Position numbers and translations under genes: made by a program
DNA from: a virus
Lineage: Duplodnaviria > Caudoviricetes
Strand: one strand, 5' to 3'
Virus record (IMG/VR): IMGVR_UViG_3300028797_000101
Span: 32,001 to 96,000 of that record
DNA: 64,000 bases
Shown here: positions 51,874-62,281 of the stretch, piece by piece
How positions within the stretch are numbered: the first letter of the stretch is position 1
Layout: the number at the start of each line of letters is the position of its first letter
The notes under the pieces: model-generated
Seen by the model: the letters and a program-made list of their open reading frames with translations, nothing else
What the model was told of the DNA's origin: nothing
Databases searched by the model: none

Positions 51874-51992
51874 TTCGCAGTTTTGTACAAAACCTGACAT
51901 CCTGCGAAACATAAATGAAAAATAACGGATACATATTGAAACAAAAGTAAGGTCCGTTCATGTATCTCTATACACATGCACGGACTTATTTT
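51874..51992 (+). promoter_or_regulatory. Candidate preQ1-I-like riboswitch 1 with terminator platform
   Basis: TTCGCAG/CTGCGAA stem, 21-nt loop TT..ATC, A-rich tail, then a terminator-like hairpin 51952-51992. Confidence 0.6.
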
Positions 51993-52002
51993 ATGGTAAT
52001 AT

Positions 52003-52064
52003 CCGCAGTTTGGTTTTACTTTCCCAGTCCTGCGGTTTACAAATAAAAACACTACTAAAGGAGG
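52003..52064 (+). promoter_or_regulatory. Candidate preQ1-I-like riboswitch 2 (translational, queF SD)
   Basis: CCGCAG/CTGCGG stem, 21-nt loop TT..GTC, A-rich tail running into AAAGGAGG. Confidence 0.6.
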
Positions 52065-55034: not shown

Positions 55035-55058
55035 TGCTTCGTTATAGCATATGATACT

Positions 55059-55122
55059 AGTCATGGTTCAGTGAACCTCACCTAATCCCATGACTCAAAA
55101 TAATGAAAAACCAAAAAGGAGG
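55059..55122 (+). promoter_or_regulatory. Candidate preQ1-I-like riboswitch 3 (translational, transporter SD)
   Basis: AGTCATGG/CCATGACT stem, 21-nt loop TTC..ATC, A-rich tail into AGGAGG; TCGTTAT motif at 55039. Confidence 0.65.
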
Positions 55123-55132
55123 AACTTAGAAC

Positions 55133-55855
55133 ATGAATTCTAAGAAAACAAGTCTTGTAGCGGACTATAAAATGCTACTCAGAAACGTACCTGCCCTTGT
55201 AACTGTCACATTTGTTGTCGGTACGCTTGCGATGAACTTAGCTGCCGCTAAGGTGATCTTCAATTTCGGCATCGTTGCCGGAACAGGCGGAATAATTCTG
55301 TCATGGCTTCCTTTCTTATGCATGGACACAGTGTCTAAGCATTTCGGAGCTAGGGCATCAATACTTCTTAACATCTTATCGTCGGCATTCAACATCTTAG
55401 TAACTATCTTTCTTGCAATCGTCGCAGCAATTCCTACTGAGCAAGATTATTCTGCGTTCAATACTTCATTTAGCGCAGTATGGTTTATTGTAGTAGCATC
55501 TAATGTCGCATTCATTCTTTCGGGAGTAGTAAACTCACTTCTTAATGTATCTGTTGGCAAATTGTTTAAAAATAAAACCAGCGGAGCTGAGTTCTTTACA
55601 AGGAGTGCGATTTCGACATTTGTCGGACAGGTAGTTGATAATTTCTTATTCATGTGGCTTCTTTATACTGTCTTCGCACCTATTTTCTGGGGCATGGAGC
55701 CTATGTCTGCTTTAACCTGTCTTGGAACTGGAATTCTTGGCGGCTTGCTAGAACTTGTATGTGAATTGATTCTTACACCCTTCGGCTACAAGATCATCAA
55801 GAACTGGGAACGCGATGGCGTAGGTCAAGAGTACATTGATGCACATAATGCGTAA
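55133..55855 (+). CDS. yhhQ: Queuosine-precursor transporter (YhhQ/VUT family)
   Basis: About 6 TM segments; N..A.K, FL..D....FG and R...ST..GQ..DN..F motifs; que context. Confidence 0.8.
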   Translation: MNSKKTSLVADYKMLLRNVPALVTVTFVVGTLAMNLAAAKVIFNFGIVAGTGGIILSWLPFLCMDTVSKHFGARASILLNILSSAFNILVTIFLAIVAAIPTEQDYSAFNTSFSAVWFIVVASNVAFILSGVVNSLLNVSVGKLFKNKTSGAEFFTRSAISTFVGQVVDNFLFMWLLYTVFAPIFWGMEPMSALTCLGTGILGGLLELVCELILTPFGYKIIKNWERDGVGQEYIDAHNA

Positions 55856-55881: not shown

Positions 55882-55917
55882 ACAACCCAGGAGCAACTAA
55901 AAGCTTCTGGGTTGTTT
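55882..55917 (+). terminator. Terminator after the que operon
   Basis: ACAACCCAGGAGC/GCTTCTGGGTTGT followed by TT. Confidence 0.8.
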
Positions 55918-55990
55918 ACTGGTTCGTTATAGTTATCACAACCTTAAATACTATCAGTAGTAACACAATATCTGAATAAAGGAGGTTTAT

Positions 55991-56380
55991 GTGATGATAG
56001 AAATTGACTTCAGTCAGCCCTGTCCTAAGAAGTATGTCGACATCGTTCAGTATGGTGATGGCGATATGATAGACGATGAGGACATCGGCCTGATCGATGT
56101 AACCGGAGTAGATCCTGAAGAATATGCTCTGGAAGACGAAGGTGATCTGTATTATTTTCTTGTATCCAAGTTTGATGACGCATCTTGGAAGCAGCTTATC
56201 GATGCTATCATAGCAGCTACAGATTATTATGATCTGTATGCAAACATTGGTATCGACAATAACATACGAGAAGCTTTGAACCTTGGTCACACAGGCGCAG
56301 TAGTTATCACAGCAGTAGGTGATAACAGAGAAACCGGTGAAACGGAAGATTTCCAGATTGCATACTTCGCGTTAGAGTAA
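55991..56380 (+). CDS. Very acidic hypothetical protein
   Basis: Late-type motif at 55940; AGGAGG SD. Confidence 0.6.
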   Translation: MMIEIDFSQPCPKKYVDIVQYGDGDMIDDEDIGLIDVTGVDPEEYALEDEGDLYYFLVSKFDDASWKQLIDAIIAATDYYDLYANIGIDNNIREALNLGHTGAVVITAVGDNRETGETEDFQIAYFALE

Positions 56381-56466
56381 ATTATCAAATAGAGCATATC
56401 TCAGTACATAGGTATGCTCTATCTTTATGGTTGAATCGTTATATACTACAGTAAGGAGGTATTCAG

Positions 56467-57993
56467 ATGAATATAAACAACTATAAGGGTCTAGAAACAC
56501 TATCTGCTCTAGAGTTAGGCGAAAAGGTAAATTTCAAAGAAATTTCACCTGTAGAGGTAATCGAATATTTTAGAGCACGAGTAGAATCTAGAAACCCCTC
56601 TATCAATGCATTTGTGTATACAAAGTTTGATGAAGCACTGAAAGAAGCCGAAGAACTAGAGAAGATGATACTCGCAGGAGATCATTTCAAGCCTCTGGCA
56701 GGTGTACCAATTGGGTTGAAAGACTTCTTGCCCACCAAGAAAGGATGGACAGCGTCACATGGCGGAGTGCCAAGTTTAATAACTGTCGATGATTGCGATT
56801 CTGAGTTCTACAAAGCTGCAAAGAGCTTAGGTGCAATCGCCATTGGGAAGACTAATGCACCTTCTTTCGGATTCCGCGGTGTATGCGATAACAAGATGTA
56901 TGGACCTACCTCAACTCCATTCAATGTAAAATACAATTCTGGCGGGTCGTCTGGTGGTTCTGCATCAGCAGTAGGTGATGGACTTGCACTTGCGTGTGAA
57001 GGAGGAGATGCTGGCGGATCTACTAGAATTCCGTCTGCTTGGTGTGGATGCTTTGGGTTCAAACCGTCTGCCGGAATTGTTCCAAGTGTATGTAGGCCTG
57101 ATGCTTGGGCCGCAACACACCCGTATTGCTGTTCTGGCCCAATCACGAAAACTGTATCAGATGCCGCAGCTATTCTCAGAAAGATGATAAGATTCGATTT
57201 ACGCGACCCTCTCAGTGTTCCAGTACCCGCAAATCTTCTGAGTATATGCGCCGACCTTGTAACACACCTGAACAAGCCGCTAGAAGGCGTTAGGATCGGT
57301 GTAACTAAGACATTCGATATTTTTCCTAATCCGGATGATCCTGTTTCATCTGCCATTGATGAAGCTGCAAAACTGCTTAAAGATCTGGGCGCAGAAATCG
57401 TTGAGACGAAATTCGATTTCGGATGTGATCGGGAATACATAGAAAACATGTGGTTACGAAGCATCAGTATCGATACTGCACTTGATTTTGAATGCAACAG
57501 AATTGCTACAGGAGAAGACATGCTTGAGAAGTTGCAAGATGAGCTTCCGATTAAGATGATGGTATGGACTAGAATAGCATTCTCATCGACTATGATGGAT
57601 TACAGGAAGTTTCATGAAATCCGAACAAAGATACTGGATGAGCATTTCAAGAACTTTGAAAAATGCGATATCTTACTAGCTCCGGTTACCGGTTGTTTAC
57701 CAGTTCTGAATAAAAATACAGATGCTGAGGGCCTTGTTGCAGGACCTTCTTTCATAGGCGGAGAGAAAGTTGATCCCTTCATCGGTTTTGGATACACCTA
57801 TCTTGAAAACTTGACTGGATTTCCGGCTGCATCTGTACCATTCAAGATAGATTCAGCTAACAATCTTCCTGTAGGTATCCAGTTAATCGGCAGAAGATAC
57901 ATGGACGATGAAGTTATCAATGTGGCCAGATGTATTGAATACGTTCACCCTTGGAGAGATTTCTACAAGATTCCTTTTGGTAGATCGTTATAA
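56467..57993 (+). CDS. Amidase-signature family enzyme (GatA-like fold)
   Basis: GVPIGLKD, GKTN, GGSSGGSA, DAGGSTRIP and LPVGIQL motifs (Lys-Ser-Ser triad). Confidence 0.9.
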   Translation: MNINNYKGLETLSALELGEKVNFKEISPVEVIEYFRARVESRNPSINAFVYTKFDEALKEAEELEKMILAGDHFKPLAGVPIGLKDFLPTKKGWTASHGGVPSLITVDDCDSEFYKAAKSLGAIAIGKTNAPSFGFRGVCDNKMYGPTSTPFNVKYNSGGSSGGSASAVGDGLALACEGGDAGGSTRIPSAWCGCFGFKPSAGIVPSVCRPDAWAATHPYCCSGPITKTVSDAAAILRKMIRFDLRDPLSVPVPANLLSICADLVTHLNKPLEGVRIGVTKTFDIFPNPDDPVSSAIDEAAKLLKDLGAEIVETKFDFGCDREYIENMWLRSISIDTALDFECNRIATGEDMLEKLQDELPIKMMVWTRIAFSSTMMDYRKFHEIRTKILDEHFKNFEKCDILLAPVTGCLPVLNKNTDAEGLVAGPSFIGGEKVDPFIGFGYTYLENLTGFPAASVPFKIDSANNLPVGIQLIGRRYMDDEVINVARCIEYVHPWRDFYKIPFGRSL

Positions 57994-58675: not shown

Positions 58676-58748
58676 GCTCTTGTAGCACAATTGGCAGTGC
58701 AGCTGATTTGTAATCAGCAGGTTGGGGGTTCGAGTCCCTCCAGGAGCT
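58676..58748 (+). tRNA. tRNA-Thr(UGU)
   Basis: Full cloverleaf; GCTGA-TT TGT AA-TCAGC anticodon arm. Confidence 0.95.
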
Positions 58749-58869
58749 TTGAAAGCTGATATATCCTATCGGACTCAACAATGGGGATGGCGTAGATAAC
58801 TCCGCAGAACCGCGCTTCAGCTTTCTCCCCTCTAAACTCCGCATCATCTATACAAAGGAGGTTGAACTC

Positions 58870-59064
58870 ATGCAAGTTAAGATCGCCTGGAAAACACTCG
58901 ACAATGTACAGCTTAAAACATTCAAGGACGAGTTCGCTTGTATTGAGTGGTGCCGTAGGAACGCAACAAACATCATGAGCATCAACGGTGTGCTTACAGG
59001 CAGGAACAACTTATCACATTTTGATGTTAAAGATTGTTTAGAGAGCAAGTTTTTCGACTATTAG
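58870..59064 (+). CDS. Hypothetical protein
   Basis: AGGAGG SD. Confidence 0.55.
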   Translation: MQVKIAWKTLDNVQLKTFKDEFACIEWCRRNATNIMSINGVLTGRNNLSHFDVKDCLESKFFDY

Positions 59065-59079
59065 ATTTTAATATATTTT

Positions 59080-59152
59080 CGGGATGTGGTGCAGTTGGTA
59101 GCATGCGTGATTTGGGATCACGAGGTCGTGGGTTCGAGTCCCGTCATTCCGA
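59080..59152 (+). tRNA. tRNA-Pro(UGG)
   Basis: Cloverleaf; CGTGA-TT TGG GA-TCACG anticodon arm. Confidence 0.9.
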
Positions 59153-59583
59153 TTTACAAACCAGAGAAGGAGATGGTATACATGAAATACGCAAGAAAAT
59201 GTATTTGTCATGGGGCAGCAACCAAGAGAATTGGCAAACTTGATCTCTGCAATGATTGCGCAAAACGTGTCCATAGAAAGAAAAGTAAATATGTGTTGAC
59301 TGATGTTCATGTATTCACTATTCCTCCCAGTCTGAAAATATACAGAGATATCATCATCAATGTGTACTGATATCAATGTGCCAATTATTCTGCAGAAGTG
59401 AGGTAGAATCATGAAAGGATCTAAAAGACATCGTTGGTTCAAAGAAGGTGTTCATGCAAGCAGAAAATACATGAAGCATGTCATGAATCGCAGAGTTAGA
59501 CACATGAATAACATCTCTAGCGGATGCAGTTACAAGCGAATACTTAAGGAAGGAGAGTTCTGCAGAGTGGATTAAATGTATAC

Positions 59584-59656
59584 TGGAGGCTACCCAAGCG
59601 GTTATGGGGCGGGCCTTATAAGCCCGTTGCGTCGAGTTCGACTCTCGAGCCTCCAA
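59584..59656 (+). tRNA. tRNA with UAU anticodon (Ile, AUA reader)
   Basis: TGGAGGC/GCCTCCA acceptor; CGGGC-CT TAT AA-GCCCG anticodon arm; TTCGACT T loop. Confidence 0.85.
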
Positions 59657-59694
59657 TTTTCTACTAGGTTGTTGAATTAAGGAGGAAACAAAAC

Positions 59695-59946
59695 ATGATG
59701 AATGATCTCAAGGACACTATTGAGTTGATGCAGAGCGAGGATTACAAAGATCGCTTCAGGGCTGAGTATTATCAGACTAAGATCCGGTACAACAAGCTGC
59801 ATACACTTCTTCTTCAGTTGGACGCCGGAACTGCAAAAATTACACCGAAGTGTCCCAAAGATCTGCTTAAAAGACAATGTGCTGACATGGGTTCGTATCT
59901 GTGTGCTCTGGAAGTTAGAGCTGAAATCGAAGAAATCGATCTGTAG
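59695..59946 (+). CDS. Conserved small phage protein (crAss001_48-like)
   Basis: M.SEDYKDRFRAEY.Q..IR..KL..LL..Q...M..Y...L..R pattern. Confidence 0.6.
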   Translation: MMNDLKDTIELMQSEDYKDRFRAEYYQTKIRYNKLHTLLLQLDAGTAKITPKCPKDLLKRQCADMGSYLCALEVRAEIEEIDL

Positions 59947-59963
59947 AAATGAGAGGCGATTTG

Positions 59964-60863
59964 ATGAAAGTCAAAACGTGGCGTGATCCTTATAATTCCG
60001 GATTTTCTGTAACACGCCCTAGAGAAATAGAATTTCATGAAGGATTGACCGTGCTTGTAGGATGCAATGGCGCAGGAAAATCTACATTACTACAAAATAT
60101 AAAAGAGCATTGCAAACATCAAAATTTACCTTGCTTCTTTTATGATAATTTACATTCTGGGGGCAGCCATGCACTACAAGAAGCAATGTATTCTGACTTA
60201 ACATCATTTGTTTCACTTTTATCATCTTCTGAAGGAGAAGCTATCAGAGAAAATCTTGCAGAGAAAAGCAGCTACTTTCTGCATTTTATTCAAACAGGCC
60301 TAATAAATGACCGACATAATAACTTCTTAAGAGCTATGAAGGCATTATCAGGTGAACCTAATACTGAAGTAGATAGCGATGTACGAGTATTTCTGTTTGA
60401 TGCTATAGATAGCGGAATGTCGGTAGACGCTGTTGTAGAAGTAAAAGAGATGTTCAAGCAGATTGAAGAGGATTGCAAGAAAGAAAACAAAAAAGTCTAC
60501 ATTCTGATTTCTGCAAATGAATACGAATTGGCTAGAGAGTGTGATTGCTTCGATGTAAACACCGGCAAGTATCTTAGATTTTCTGACTACATGGATTACA
60601 GAGAGTTTATCTGCAAGTCTAGAGTACGAAAAGAGAAACGATACGCTGATCAAAAGATATGGATCGAGAAGCAGAAAGAAAAAGAGCTAGCAAAGTATCG
60701 TAAGCTTCTACAAGCTACTAAAGAGAAAAGAGATAAGCTCTTAGCTTCCAAACATCCTGATCGTTGGGAGCTTAGAGACCTCGAAGACGAACCTAAAGAA
60801 TTCTTACGGTCAGCTAGATTCATATCTGAAGAAGACGTAGCATTCATAGAAAATTCCACATGA
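59964..60863 (+). CDS. ABC-type ATPase
   Basis: GCNGAGKS, SSEGE and FLFDAIDSG motifs. Confidence 0.8.
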   Translation: MKVKTWRDPYNSGFSVTRPREIEFHEGLTVLVGCNGAGKSTLLQNIKEHCKHQNLPCFFYDNLHSGGSHALQEAMYSDLTSFVSLLSSSEGEAIRENLAEKSSYFLHFIQTGLINDRHNNFLRAMKALSGEPNTEVDSDVRVFLFDAIDSGMSVDAVVEVKEMFKQIEEDCKKENKKVYILISANEYELARECDCFDVNTGKYLRFSDYMDYREFICKSRVRKEKRYADQKIWIEKQKEKELAKYRKLLQATKEKRDKLLASKHPDRWELRDLEDEPKEFLRSARFISEEDVAFIENST

Positions 60864-60904
60864 ATACACAGGAGTAGAAATCTCCTTGTAAAACTCGTTA
60901 GCAT

Positions 60905-61117
60905 AGACGATAGGTGTGATACGGTAAATGCTTTGACAGACAAGATTCTGGTGACTTTGGTAGTGGGAAAAGAAAACTACCACATGTCTCTTGTAAGCGT
61001 AGACATTAAATAAAACTTTCTGATCATCTAATGATGAGGGCATGGCATCCTATGAGTGCACACCTGAAAAGGTTTAGGATGGGAAAAGAGAGTCCATGTA
61101 GAGCGGTGGTATCGTCT
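60905..61117 (+). ncRNA. Candidate structured ncRNA
   Basis: AGACGATA/TATCGTCT closing stem, nested helices, GAAA tetraloop; follows a TCGTTA motif. Confidence 0.45.
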
Positions 61118-61129
61118 CATTAGATTTAT

Positions 61130-61270
61130 TGTAAGCAGAATCTCGACTACGAGAAACTGTGTAATGGGCTGTTGGCGAGCCCTCAAAGAATAAGGCTCTC
61201 GTAGCAACCTTCTTTGGAATCCCAGTGGCTTTAGCCGCTGGGAGTGTCAAATACTCCTCAATAGCTCAAT
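61130..61270 (+). ncRNA. Orphan TnpB omega-RNA (scaffold 61130-61250 plus guide)
   Basis: Colinear with 23653-23777; right-end hairpin CCCAGTGGCT/AGCCGCTGGG plus TCAA; no adjacent tnpB. Confidence 0.75.
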
Positions 61271-61330
61271 CGGTTAGTTAGCGCTCGCTTGTTAACCGAG
61301 TTGTTGCAGGTTCGAGTCCTACCTGGGGAG
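61255..61330 (+). pseudogene. Degenerate tRNA-Asn(GUU)
   Basis: Recognisable cloverleaf with a GTT anticodon but a mismatch in each of the four stems. Confidence 0.7.
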
Positions 61331-61332
61331 TT

Positions 61333-61642
61333 CCTGTCAAATCAGGCGTGTAGAAAGATCGCGTAAGTATCTTTCGGTTGATATCTTCTTCTAATGAAGA
61401 AGCGAAGCTTTTACTGCTGAGGGTAAATCAGCGGCGCAAAACGGGTGAAGCGTCATTCACCCGTCGTTTACTTAGTAGTGGGAAAAGGGAAATCGTTCAA
61501 ATCGTGGAGGATATCTATTGTATATCTGTTGAAACGGTGATGATAAGACTAGATTGGTTGAGAATCTAGATGATGGTGCAGCCCTCGGTCAAGGTGAAGC
61601 AGTTCATTCCAGAAACTGATAGTCTTGTGGTTAAACTACTAA
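61333..61642 (+). ncRNA. Candidate multi-hairpin ncRNA
   Basis: At least seven hairpins plus a long-range TTAGTAGT/ACTACTAA pairing; no credible ORF. Confidence 0.45.
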
Positions 61643-61643
61643 T

Positions 61644-61727
61644 GCTATTGTGGTGGAATAGGCAGACACAAGGGACTTAAAATCCCTCGATGGAAACATC
61701 ATACGAGTTCAAGTCTCGTCAATAGCA
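61644..61727 (+). tRNA. tRNA-Leu(UAA)
   Basis: Cloverleaf with long variable arm; AGGGA-CT TAA AA-TCCCT. Confidence 0.95.
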
Positions 61728-61730
61728 TTT

Positions 61731-61880
61731 GTCTCGGTGGCGGAATAAGTAGACGCTAAAGTAGACGGTCGAAAGATGTTGTGAGGAAACAGTTCGAGTC
61801 TGTGAGTCTCCTGGTTCGACTCCTGGGGGCGCATGGTGCAATATCAACATCATGTAAGGTGCAAATCCTTACCCGAGATA
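61731..61880 (+). ncRNA. tRNA-like RNA with multi-T-loop insert
   Basis: GTCTCGG/CCGAGAT acceptor, Leu-type D arm, GTAAGG-TGCAAAT-CCTTAC T arm; no anticodon arm. Confidence 0.55.
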
Positions 61881-62005
61881 TACACCGCACGGATGGCCTT
61901 GGGTGCAACCGACGGGTGGAGACAGTTAATGCAACTTCGGTGCGGTATACAAATGAATATGGGCCTCAAGCAGAAAGTGGTACACCCTTCATGAGTATGC
62001 AATAT

Positions 62006-62078
62006 AGCCCTTTCGCCAAGCGGTGAAGGCACAGCACTTTGACTGCTGTATTCGATGGTTCAAATCCATCAAGGGCTG
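62006..62078 (+). tRNA. tRNA-Gln(UUG)
   Basis: Cloverleaf; CAGCA-CT TTG AC-TGCTG; G73. Confidence 0.95.
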
Positions 62079-62281
62079 CGCATTATCTTTTCTTGTTTTC
62101 CATTTTTGTTGTTTGATGGAGACGCCACGACAGCTGACTTCGTCTCCACGACACGTGTTCCCTAGCACATGTTCCATACAGGAGTCAGCAAGAAGAAATG
62201 ATACATCCTCTGTAGTGAGAAATCACCTTCGTCTACTGGTTAGGGGTGAAAGATGTCAGACCAGTATCCTAGCATATTTCC

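Follow-up and report, generated by a model that had tools for sequence, protein, structure and literature searches.

Type I riboswitches of the pre-queuosine 1 (preQ1) class preQ1-I carry four hallmarks, namely UU on top of the 5' strand of the helix P1, UC preceding the P1 3' strand, a C in the tail, and a G-C pair as the floor of the ligand pocket (PMC11625349). Bacterial yhhQ genes are placed under preQ1 riboswitches (PMC5372724, PMC11625349), and the Escherichia coli member of the YhhQ family has been shown to transport preQ0 (PMC5372724). Riboswitches have seldom been found in the genomes of phages, which, it has been speculated, may favor undiscovered classes (PMC5473149); phage riboswitches are also called rare in a study that describes glutamine riboswitches in marine phages (PMC9004378). 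Our literature search found no paper on a phage preQ1-type riboswitch. Here we analyze a leader RNA in 64,000 nucleotides (nt) of DNA from a cattle-gut phage (this whole stretch, hereafter the window, is bases 32001-96000 of the complete 159,304-bp virus record IMGVR_UViG_3300028797_000101, which has direct terminal repeats). The leader, copy 3 of three related elements in this phage, precedes a yhhQ-type gene for a 7-deazaguanine precursor transporter, and the gene order is queF-queC-queD-queE-folE, then copy 3, then yhhQ. We conclude that copy 3 is a genuine and conserved cis-regulatory RNA. By analogy with the bacterial systems, we put at roughly 0.7 the probability that it is a translational OFF switch for preQ1 or preQ0, a stretched type I-like variant of preQ1-I that controls the yhhQ importer. 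The initial annotation of this DNA had described an aptamer before a preQ transporter; its structural claims hold and the gene is indeed of the Vut_1/YhhQ family, while "aptamer" and "preQ1" are assigned by analogy.

The stem, 21-nt loop, tail, Shine-Dalgarno (SD) sequence, and ATG of copy 3 all lie where the initial annotation placed them (Table 1), and 64 nt are spanned from P1 to the SD. In the predicted fold, the outermost P1 pair has a probability of 0.63 and the other seven have probabilities of 0.94-1.0; the SD is unpaired with a probability of 0.41-0.98 when pseudoknots are disallowed. A competing GGUUC/GAACC hairpin, whose dominance had been named as a reason to doubt the aptamer, exists, but it was rejected as the dominant fold with a probability of ∼0 (-4.6 versus -12.0 kcal/mol), and it is not kept in the related locus L035 (retrieved loci carry L numbers). 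P1 was also considered as an intrinsic terminator and ruled out because no U-tract follows the stem. By its minimum free energy, the 102-nt stretch does not stand out (z-score of -0.55), and the case for copy 3 therefore depends on comparative evidence.

The loop of copy 3 is identical in two relatives, L034 and L036 (YhhQ identity of 98 and 69%, respectively), in which the stem is AGUCACGG/CCGUGACU, a compensatory change from U-A to C-G. Between L036 and the window, the leader is 94.6% identical and the coding sequence is 71.5% identical. In a third relative, L035 (YhhQ identity of 82%), the loop plan UUCAGUG-UCCUAACCUAAUC is kept, with identity at 17 of the 21 loop positions, on a wholly different stem, CCGCAG/CUGCGG. 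When the family was aligned in 48 model-fitted rows, all 250 P1 cells were paired, double changes occurred in 6/6 pairs, and the top pair was G-C in 42 of 43 rows. The P1 covariation score in the family was 0.71, compared with 0.16 ± 0.02 for shuffles (0/500) and no more than 0.15 when partners were slid. The same P1 helix is returned by RNAalifold from a MAFFT alignment, A4, which consists of 15 leaders of the subtype to which copy 3 belongs (subtype B, see below). We take P1 formation to be shown by covariation; the changes that the initial annotation had noticed among the three copies are present, and those across phages are more convincing.

Before yhhQ, the same design was found in ∼25 of 30 loci from IMG/VR and in the majority of 25 Joint Genome Institute metagenome loci, and copies of the family precede queF in L004, L005, L014, and L037. 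The family was described with model R1, for which 12 subtype-A leaders from IMG/VR were used; model R2, built from the subtype-B alignment A4, in which copies 2 and 3 are included; and model R3, built from bacterial yhhQ leaders only, including two seed leaders that are recognized by the curated preQ1-I model of Rfam (RF00522). The consensus of subtype A is P1, UUUUGUA-N2-5-UCCU(U)GA(C/A)ANC, P1', and AAAA-Y-AAAAA-U-AAA-GGAG, and its members include copy 1 and a leader of the cultured Streptococcus phage Dp-1. With R1, copy 1 scores 38.8 bits, copy 2 scores 4, copy 3 scores 7, and the other members of subtype A score 45-79, apart from the Dp-1 leader (L375, NC_015274, positions 77-125), which scores 36.1 bits (E 6e-6). 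The Dp-1 element, AGCAG-UUUUGUAAACCUGACAUC-CUGCU-AAAUAAAAAUAAAGGAGG, lies directly after an annotated -10 box and before gp01, the first gene of the queuosine cluster; the GenBank record annotates a promoter and a ribosome-binding site in this leader and no riboswitch. In subtype B, which includes copies 2 and 3, the stem is often CCGCAG/CUGCGG, the 19-24-nt loop reads UUCG(U/G)A...CCUUA...(A)AUC, and the tail reads (U)UACAAAUAAAAAC...AAGGAGG. R2 gave matches outside its seed at L037 2281-2347 (before queF), at L037 665-737 (before a long hairpin), and in L042, and it scores subtype-A members at 12-31 bits. The initial annotation had treated the three copies in this phage as alike; the 21-nt loop is common to them, but they are not equivalent, as copy 1 is of the other subtype and the loop of copy 2 ends in GTC rather than ATC.

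The contigs that bear the stretched forms are viral or from metagenomes, with one more, of 142 kb, binned as Bacteroidaceae (L073, R1 48 bits); the forms were absent from the other 79 bacterial yhhQ leaders searched. None was found when R1 was run over 151 Clostridia genomes, a weak test in which 37 candidates were scored per genome. Among 80 loci listed in a subtype-A pattern scan of IMG/VR, about one-quarter were real (26 matches in 21 loci); all 80 loci listed in a scan for loops of the copy-3 type (TTCAGTG..CCTAATCC) were chance matches by R2, and that scan is uninformative. Searches of GenBank phages gave only two weak, unannotated matches to the region by blastn and no match to YhhQ by tblastn, and a QueF query had no match in IMG/VR.

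Several family members show variations on the design. Copies at L029:592-640, before a gene for a short-chain-dehydrogenase-like protein (246 amino acids), and at L039:893-952, before a 152-amino acid gene without assigned function, mark possible further members of the regulon. At L012:1313-1480 and L021:1322-1500, the switch covers the SD of a tiny open reading frame (ORF; 8 and 13 codons, respectively) between the element and yhhQ, which suggests leader-peptide coupling. L014/L015:1391-1470 is a variant whose P1 3' strand and A-rich tail are separated by a small inserted hairpin, CAGCAGAAAUGCUG.

All four of the type I hallmarks are invariant columns of A4. The invariant columns of this alignment include U9, U10, U33, C34, and the tail A positions, and copy 3 keeps every invariant one: its P1 is topped by the pair G55066-C55088, and the pocket-type bases U55067, U55068, U55086, and C55087 are present, C55087 being, by analogy, the candidate ligand-pairing cytosine. 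Loop position 4 of copy 3 is A, where the usual base is G. Like type I preQ1-I riboswitches (RF00522; for example the Carnobacterium antarcticum aptamer), the element has a G-C-topped P1, UU/UC loop ends, an A-rich tail with a C, and a pyrimidine-rich anti-SD in the loop that makes an H-type pseudoknot possible; it also shares with them its placement before yhhQ and queF and, as proposed, an OFF logic. Unlike them, copy 3 has a 21-nt loop (19-24 nt in subtype B compared with 12-15 nt), a 21-nt tail from P1 to the SD (compared with ∼7-12 nt), an 8-bp P1 (compared with 5-6 bp), and a loop that holds an internal hairpin and in which two CCU units may clamp the whole AGGAGG. It thus falls outside the dimensions of a compact aptamer (loop of ∼10-15 nt, ∼34-45 nt overall), and the element is outside the curated preQ1-I family by size and score.

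The nearest bacterial counterpart is a near-invariant leader of many rumen and gut Clostridia, CAG-UUCGGGUCCGAUAUC-CUG...AAAACCAAAGGAG, found ∼50-90 nt before yhhQ in ∼60 bacterial loci (L074-L144). It resembles copy 3 in having the same pocket bases, a near-identical tail (AAAACCAAA(AA)GGAG), and the same gene downstream, and it is cross-detected with R2; it differs in its 15-nt loop, in the absence of an inner hairpin, and in being bacterial. In all, R2 matches 69 of the 80 retrieved bacterial yhhQ leaders (16-38 bits). In the other direction, R3, with its bacterial seed, matches L050 (39 bits, E 1.5e-8), L037 (31 bits, E 2.2e-6), L056 (26 bits, E 5.7e-5), L035 (23.2 bits, E 4e-4), copy 2 (17.2 bits, E 0.016), and the copy-3 orthologue of L034 (14.8 bits, E 0.075). 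Phage subtype A has the same plan, genes, and phage setting as copy 3, with the difference that its loop is the unstructured UUUUGUA-N-UCCU(U)GA(C/A)ANC, in which the base before the final C varies. The preQ1-II (RF01054) and preQ1-III (RF02680) classes share with copy 3 the presumed ligand and queuosine-related genes, and preQ1-II also sequesters the SD, but they form larger HLout pseudoknots with extra helices, whereas copy 3 has one outer helix and a 4-bp inner hairpin. Judged from these sequence comparisons, the element very probably descends from a type I preQ1-I riboswitch.

We regard a pseudoknot, P2, between the loop and the SD as likely but unproven. The CCUC of copy 3 (55076-55079) is complementary to GAGG; alternatively, CCU-CA-CCU could pair with the whole AGGAGG with 2 nt bulged, and L035 has the equivalent CCU-AA-CCU. 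For 37 family members, pairing of the loop to its own SD region averages -5.47 kcal/mol, whereas shuffled loops reach -3.99 ± 0.28 kcal/mol (0/300). Loop and SD region also vary together, with UCCAA facing UUGGA in L046-48, CUUUGA facing UCAAAG in L044, and UCCUUA facing UAAGGA in L005. The proposal of the initial annotation that the loop CCTC/CCT can pair with the SD is therefore supported, as the complementarity is present and the fit of family loops to their SD regions is better than when these are permuted (-6.02 compared with -5.35 ± 0.20 kcal/mol in subtype B, p = 0.0006, a comparison that is confounded by relatedness, which inflates it). Inside the loop, subtype-B sequences fold at -1.53 kcal/mol, compared with -0.35 ± 0.19 kcal/mol for shuffles (0/500), and we infer that this inner hairpin represents the ligand-free state. 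Subtype-A loops are unstructured; an inner helix UGU/ACA considered for them was dropped, as these loops are less structured than their shuffles.

To place copy 3 against chance, a descriptor was composed, after copy 3 was known, of a stem of ≥6 bp topped by a G-C pair; a loop of 19-24 nt that starts with UU, ends with UC, and contains CCU, UCC, or CUUU; AAAAC in the tail; and then an SD and a start codon. On both strands of the window, this descriptor matched copies 2 and 3 only, and it matched in 0 of 200 dinucleotide shuffles. In the whole phage, the family models pick out three sites only (copies 1, 2, and 3).

Based on these comparisons, the following mechanism is proposed. Transcription would start a few bases 3' of the TCGTTATA motif, and P1 would form, as its covariation indicates. 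By analogy with preQ1-I, the ligand would stack on G55066-C55088 and be read by C55087, and U55067/U55068 together with tail adenines would complete the pocket. In the ligand-bound RNA, the CCUC/CCU of the loop would pair with AGGAGG, forming an H-type pseudoknot that masks the yhhQ ribosome-binding site, so that the importer would fall when the base is plentiful. In the ligand-free RNA, the inner hairpin would hold part of the anti-SD and leave the SD accessible, which would be the ON state. With copies 1 and 2 before queF and copy 3 before yhhQ, both the synthesis and the uptake of 7-deazaguanines would be under feedback.

Table 1. Features of copy 3, its gene, and its sister copies (positions in the window)
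Feature	Position	Strand	Description
Promoter-like motif TCGTTATA	55039..55046	+	12 nt 5' of P1
P1, 5' strand, AGTCATGG (RNA AGUCAUGG)	55059..55066	+	G55066 is half of the conserved G-C top pair
Loop, 21 nt, TTCAGTGAACCTCACCTAATC (RNA UUCAGUGAACCUCACCUAAUC)	55067..55087	+	Starts with UU and ends with UC; anti-SD central
Inner hairpin of the loop, GUGA/UCAC	55071..55081	+	Overlaps the anti-SD; pair probabilities 0.75-0.99
Anti-SD CCUCACCU, two CCU units	55076..55083	+	CCUC:GAGG duplex, -6.2 kcal/mol
P1, 3' strand, CCATGACT (RNA CCAUGACU)	55088..55095	+	8-bp stem with 55059-55066
A-rich tail CAAAATAATGAAAAACCAAAAAGGAGG (RNA CAAAAUAAUGAAAAACCAAAA)	55096..55116	+	A-run 55106-55110, then conserved C55111
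SD AGGAGG	55117..55122	+	3' strand of proposed pseudoknot P2; 10 nt before ATG at 55133
yhhQ-type gene (Vut_1, COG1738), 7-deazaguanine precursor transporter, 240 amino acids	55133..55855	+	Pfam PF02592, E 2.8e-23
Sister copy 1 (subtype A), then a terminator-like hairpin	51874..51908	+	R1 38.8 bits; 21-nt loop; before queF
Sister copy 2 (subtype B), over the queF SD	52003..52035	+	R2 63 bits; 21-nt loop

Besides the inflation of the permutation test noted above, several results weigh against reading copy 3 as a preQ1-type switch. No Rfam family, preQ1-I, preQ1-II, and preQ1-III among them, matched copy 3 at E ≤ 10 in a 96-nt scan, nor did Rfam preQ1 families match anywhere in the whole phage in a search in which the Bacillus subtilis control was positive. 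The models built without copy 3 do not recover its hairpin, as R1 (7 bits) and R3 (9 bits) align only the tail, and a subtype-B nhmmer profile from which copy 3 and L034 were left out misses it, whether L035 is included or not. Its R2 score of 57 bits is high by construction, because copy 3 is in the seed. The loop is ∼9 nt longer than that of any solved preQ1-I aptamer, and the pocket geometry is assumed. P2 of copy 3 has just 4 contiguous pairs, and no P2 covariation was found within its own lineage.

How much the missing Rfam match counts depends on how narrow the curated model is. No preQ1 family was found in the window and in narrow slices of it at either the gathering threshold or E ≤ 10, Rfam preQ1 families had no match in 20 related loci, and copy 3 does not reach the gathering threshold of RF00522 (39 bits). 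On bacterial yhhQ leaders with the 12-nt loop UUCGUAACCAUC (two of the R3 seeds), RF00522 itself reaches 30 bits, below its 39-bit cutoff, and it misses the 15-nt-loop leader of rumen Clostridia, also in a narrow scan, and likewise the 15-nt-loop leader of L058. RF00522 is therefore narrow, and the absence of an Rfam match is weak evidence against kinship. The AAAACCAAA..GGAG stretch, the sole part of copy 3 aligned by R3, is common to copy 3 and bacterial yhhQ leaders. Since models that do not contain copy 3 fail on its hairpin, we regard it as a divergent member of the family, the most divergent one; when copy 2 was also left out of the nhmmer profile, copy 2 was still found (37 bits, E 1e-10). 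The case for its membership is built on its shape and invariant bases, its context, the descriptor test, and the bridge provided by L035 and L034.

This divergence could also mean that copy 3 descends from the switch but has decayed or become independent of ligand, for instance as a hairpin that stabilizes the mRNA or modulates translation constitutively, as might be expected of the most divergent member, one whose hairpin escapes R1, R3, and the leave-out nhmmer profile and in which the usual G of loop position 4 is replaced by A. We consider this unlikely: all positions invariant in subtype B are retained in copy 3, the loop is 100% conserved in L034 and L036 alongside a compensatory stem change, the leader is far more conserved than the gene, and L035 combines this loop plan with another stem.

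It is improbable, to a slightly greater degree, that the fold family is the same and the ligand another, either a different 7-deazaguanine (for example preQ0 only, 7-carboxy-7-deazaguanine [CDG], or 7-amido-7-deazaguanine [ADG]) or some other purine-like base. The invariance of the cytosine that precedes the P1 3' strand and of the UU/UC pocket bases speaks for preQ1, as does the phage QueF, which makes preQ1, and the genes regulated are exactly those found under bacterial preQ1 riboswitches (PMC5372724). What lends another ligand some credit is a loop 6-9 nt longer than in known preQ1-I aptamers, the lack of a match by the curated models, and the uncertain end product of the pathway, since a six-frame search of the 159,304-bp phage with the Pfam tRNA-guanine transglycosylase (TGT) family (PF01702, E ≤ 0.01) gave no match for a TGT or DpdA; 14 of 14 control genomes were positive in this search, which a divergent DpdA could escape.

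Protein translational repressors of phages commonly bind 5' hairpins near the SD, and the hairpin and A-rich tail might on that precedent be a protein or small-RNA site (an operator or processing site, of phage or host) instead of a metabolite sensor, but this is highly improbable given that the element accompanies queuosine genes in phages that are unrelated, that its pocket positions match bacterial preQ1-I leaders nucleotide for nucleotide, and that no candidate regulator gene co-occurs in the examined loci.

Beside the preferred reading of copy 3 as a stretched preQ1-I-like OFF switch, we tentatively raise a further idea, itself more doubtful than that reading: the form with the 19-24-nt loop (copies 2 and 3 with their relatives) might constitute a structurally distinct, phage-specific preQ1 aptamer and not an enlarged preQ1-I. 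The inner hairpin would then store the anti-SD while no ligand is bound, and in the lineage of copy 3 two CCU units would clamp the whole AGGAGG on ligand binding. As this complete phage has three such switches and no Pfam-detected TGT/DpdA, the sensed base may feed queuosine in host tRNA or an unrecognized DNA transglycosylase.

In the window, the TCGTTATA motif found upstream of copy 3 has 8 occurrences, each on the + strand, compared with 2.0 expected, and 8 or more sites were seen in 0 of 100 shuffles. All 8 sites are intergenic and lie ahead of genes or of the tRNA island, several of them after terminator-like hairpins, and the shorter TCGTTAY has a strand split of 16 versus 3. Among relatives that carry the motif, it is 10-14 nt from the element in most and ∼30 nt in L002; in L034, it is kept 10-14 nt 5' of P1, with only 61% identity in the rest of the upstream 100 nt. 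The initial annotation had pointed to a TCGTTAT just upstream as a phage-type promoter, and its enrichment, one-strand bias, intergenic placement, and recurrence 5' of the element in relatives agree with this; we infer that it acts as a promoter. A start site just 5' of P1 would suit a transcript that begins with its own riboswitch. A further TCGTTATA motif lies in the loop of a 7-bp hairpin, GGGTTGT/ACAACCT, at window positions 55909-55944, between yhhQ and a 129-amino acid ORF at 55991.

At L034:1277-1500, a copy-1-like element and its terminator are followed directly by a TCGTTATAG motif and then by the orthologue of copy 3 and yhhQ; the queF-folE operon is absent from between them. Because the que operon does not intervene in this arrangement, the promoter-switch-transporter unit appears to be a movable module. 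What copy 3 adds to the family is a transporter with a separate putative promoter-plus-switch module that moves as a unit.

Taken together, one complete phage has three putative preQ1-type switches that the curated model misses, and dozens of phage contigs, together with the cultured phage Dp-1, carry members of their family. If the proposed ligand response is true, phages would apply metabolite feedback to their own synthesis and import of 7-deazaguanines. The smallest riboswitch fold would then gain a wider range of sequence and size, which would help aptamer engineering and repair of the Rfam model, and the element would be a simple marker of 7-deazaguanine metabolism in viromes.

Downstream of yhhQ, a terminator-like hairpin (56389-56422) precedes a gene for a stand-alone amidase-signature protein of 508 amino acids (window 56467-57993, Pfam Amidase E 1e-81), which has its own TCGTTATA motif. 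Six tRNA genes follow at window positions 58676-62079 (Thr-UGU, Pro-UGG, Ile-UAU, Asn-GUU, Leu-UAA, and Gln-UUG), among which tRNA-Asn is the only one that belongs to the queuosine-modified set.

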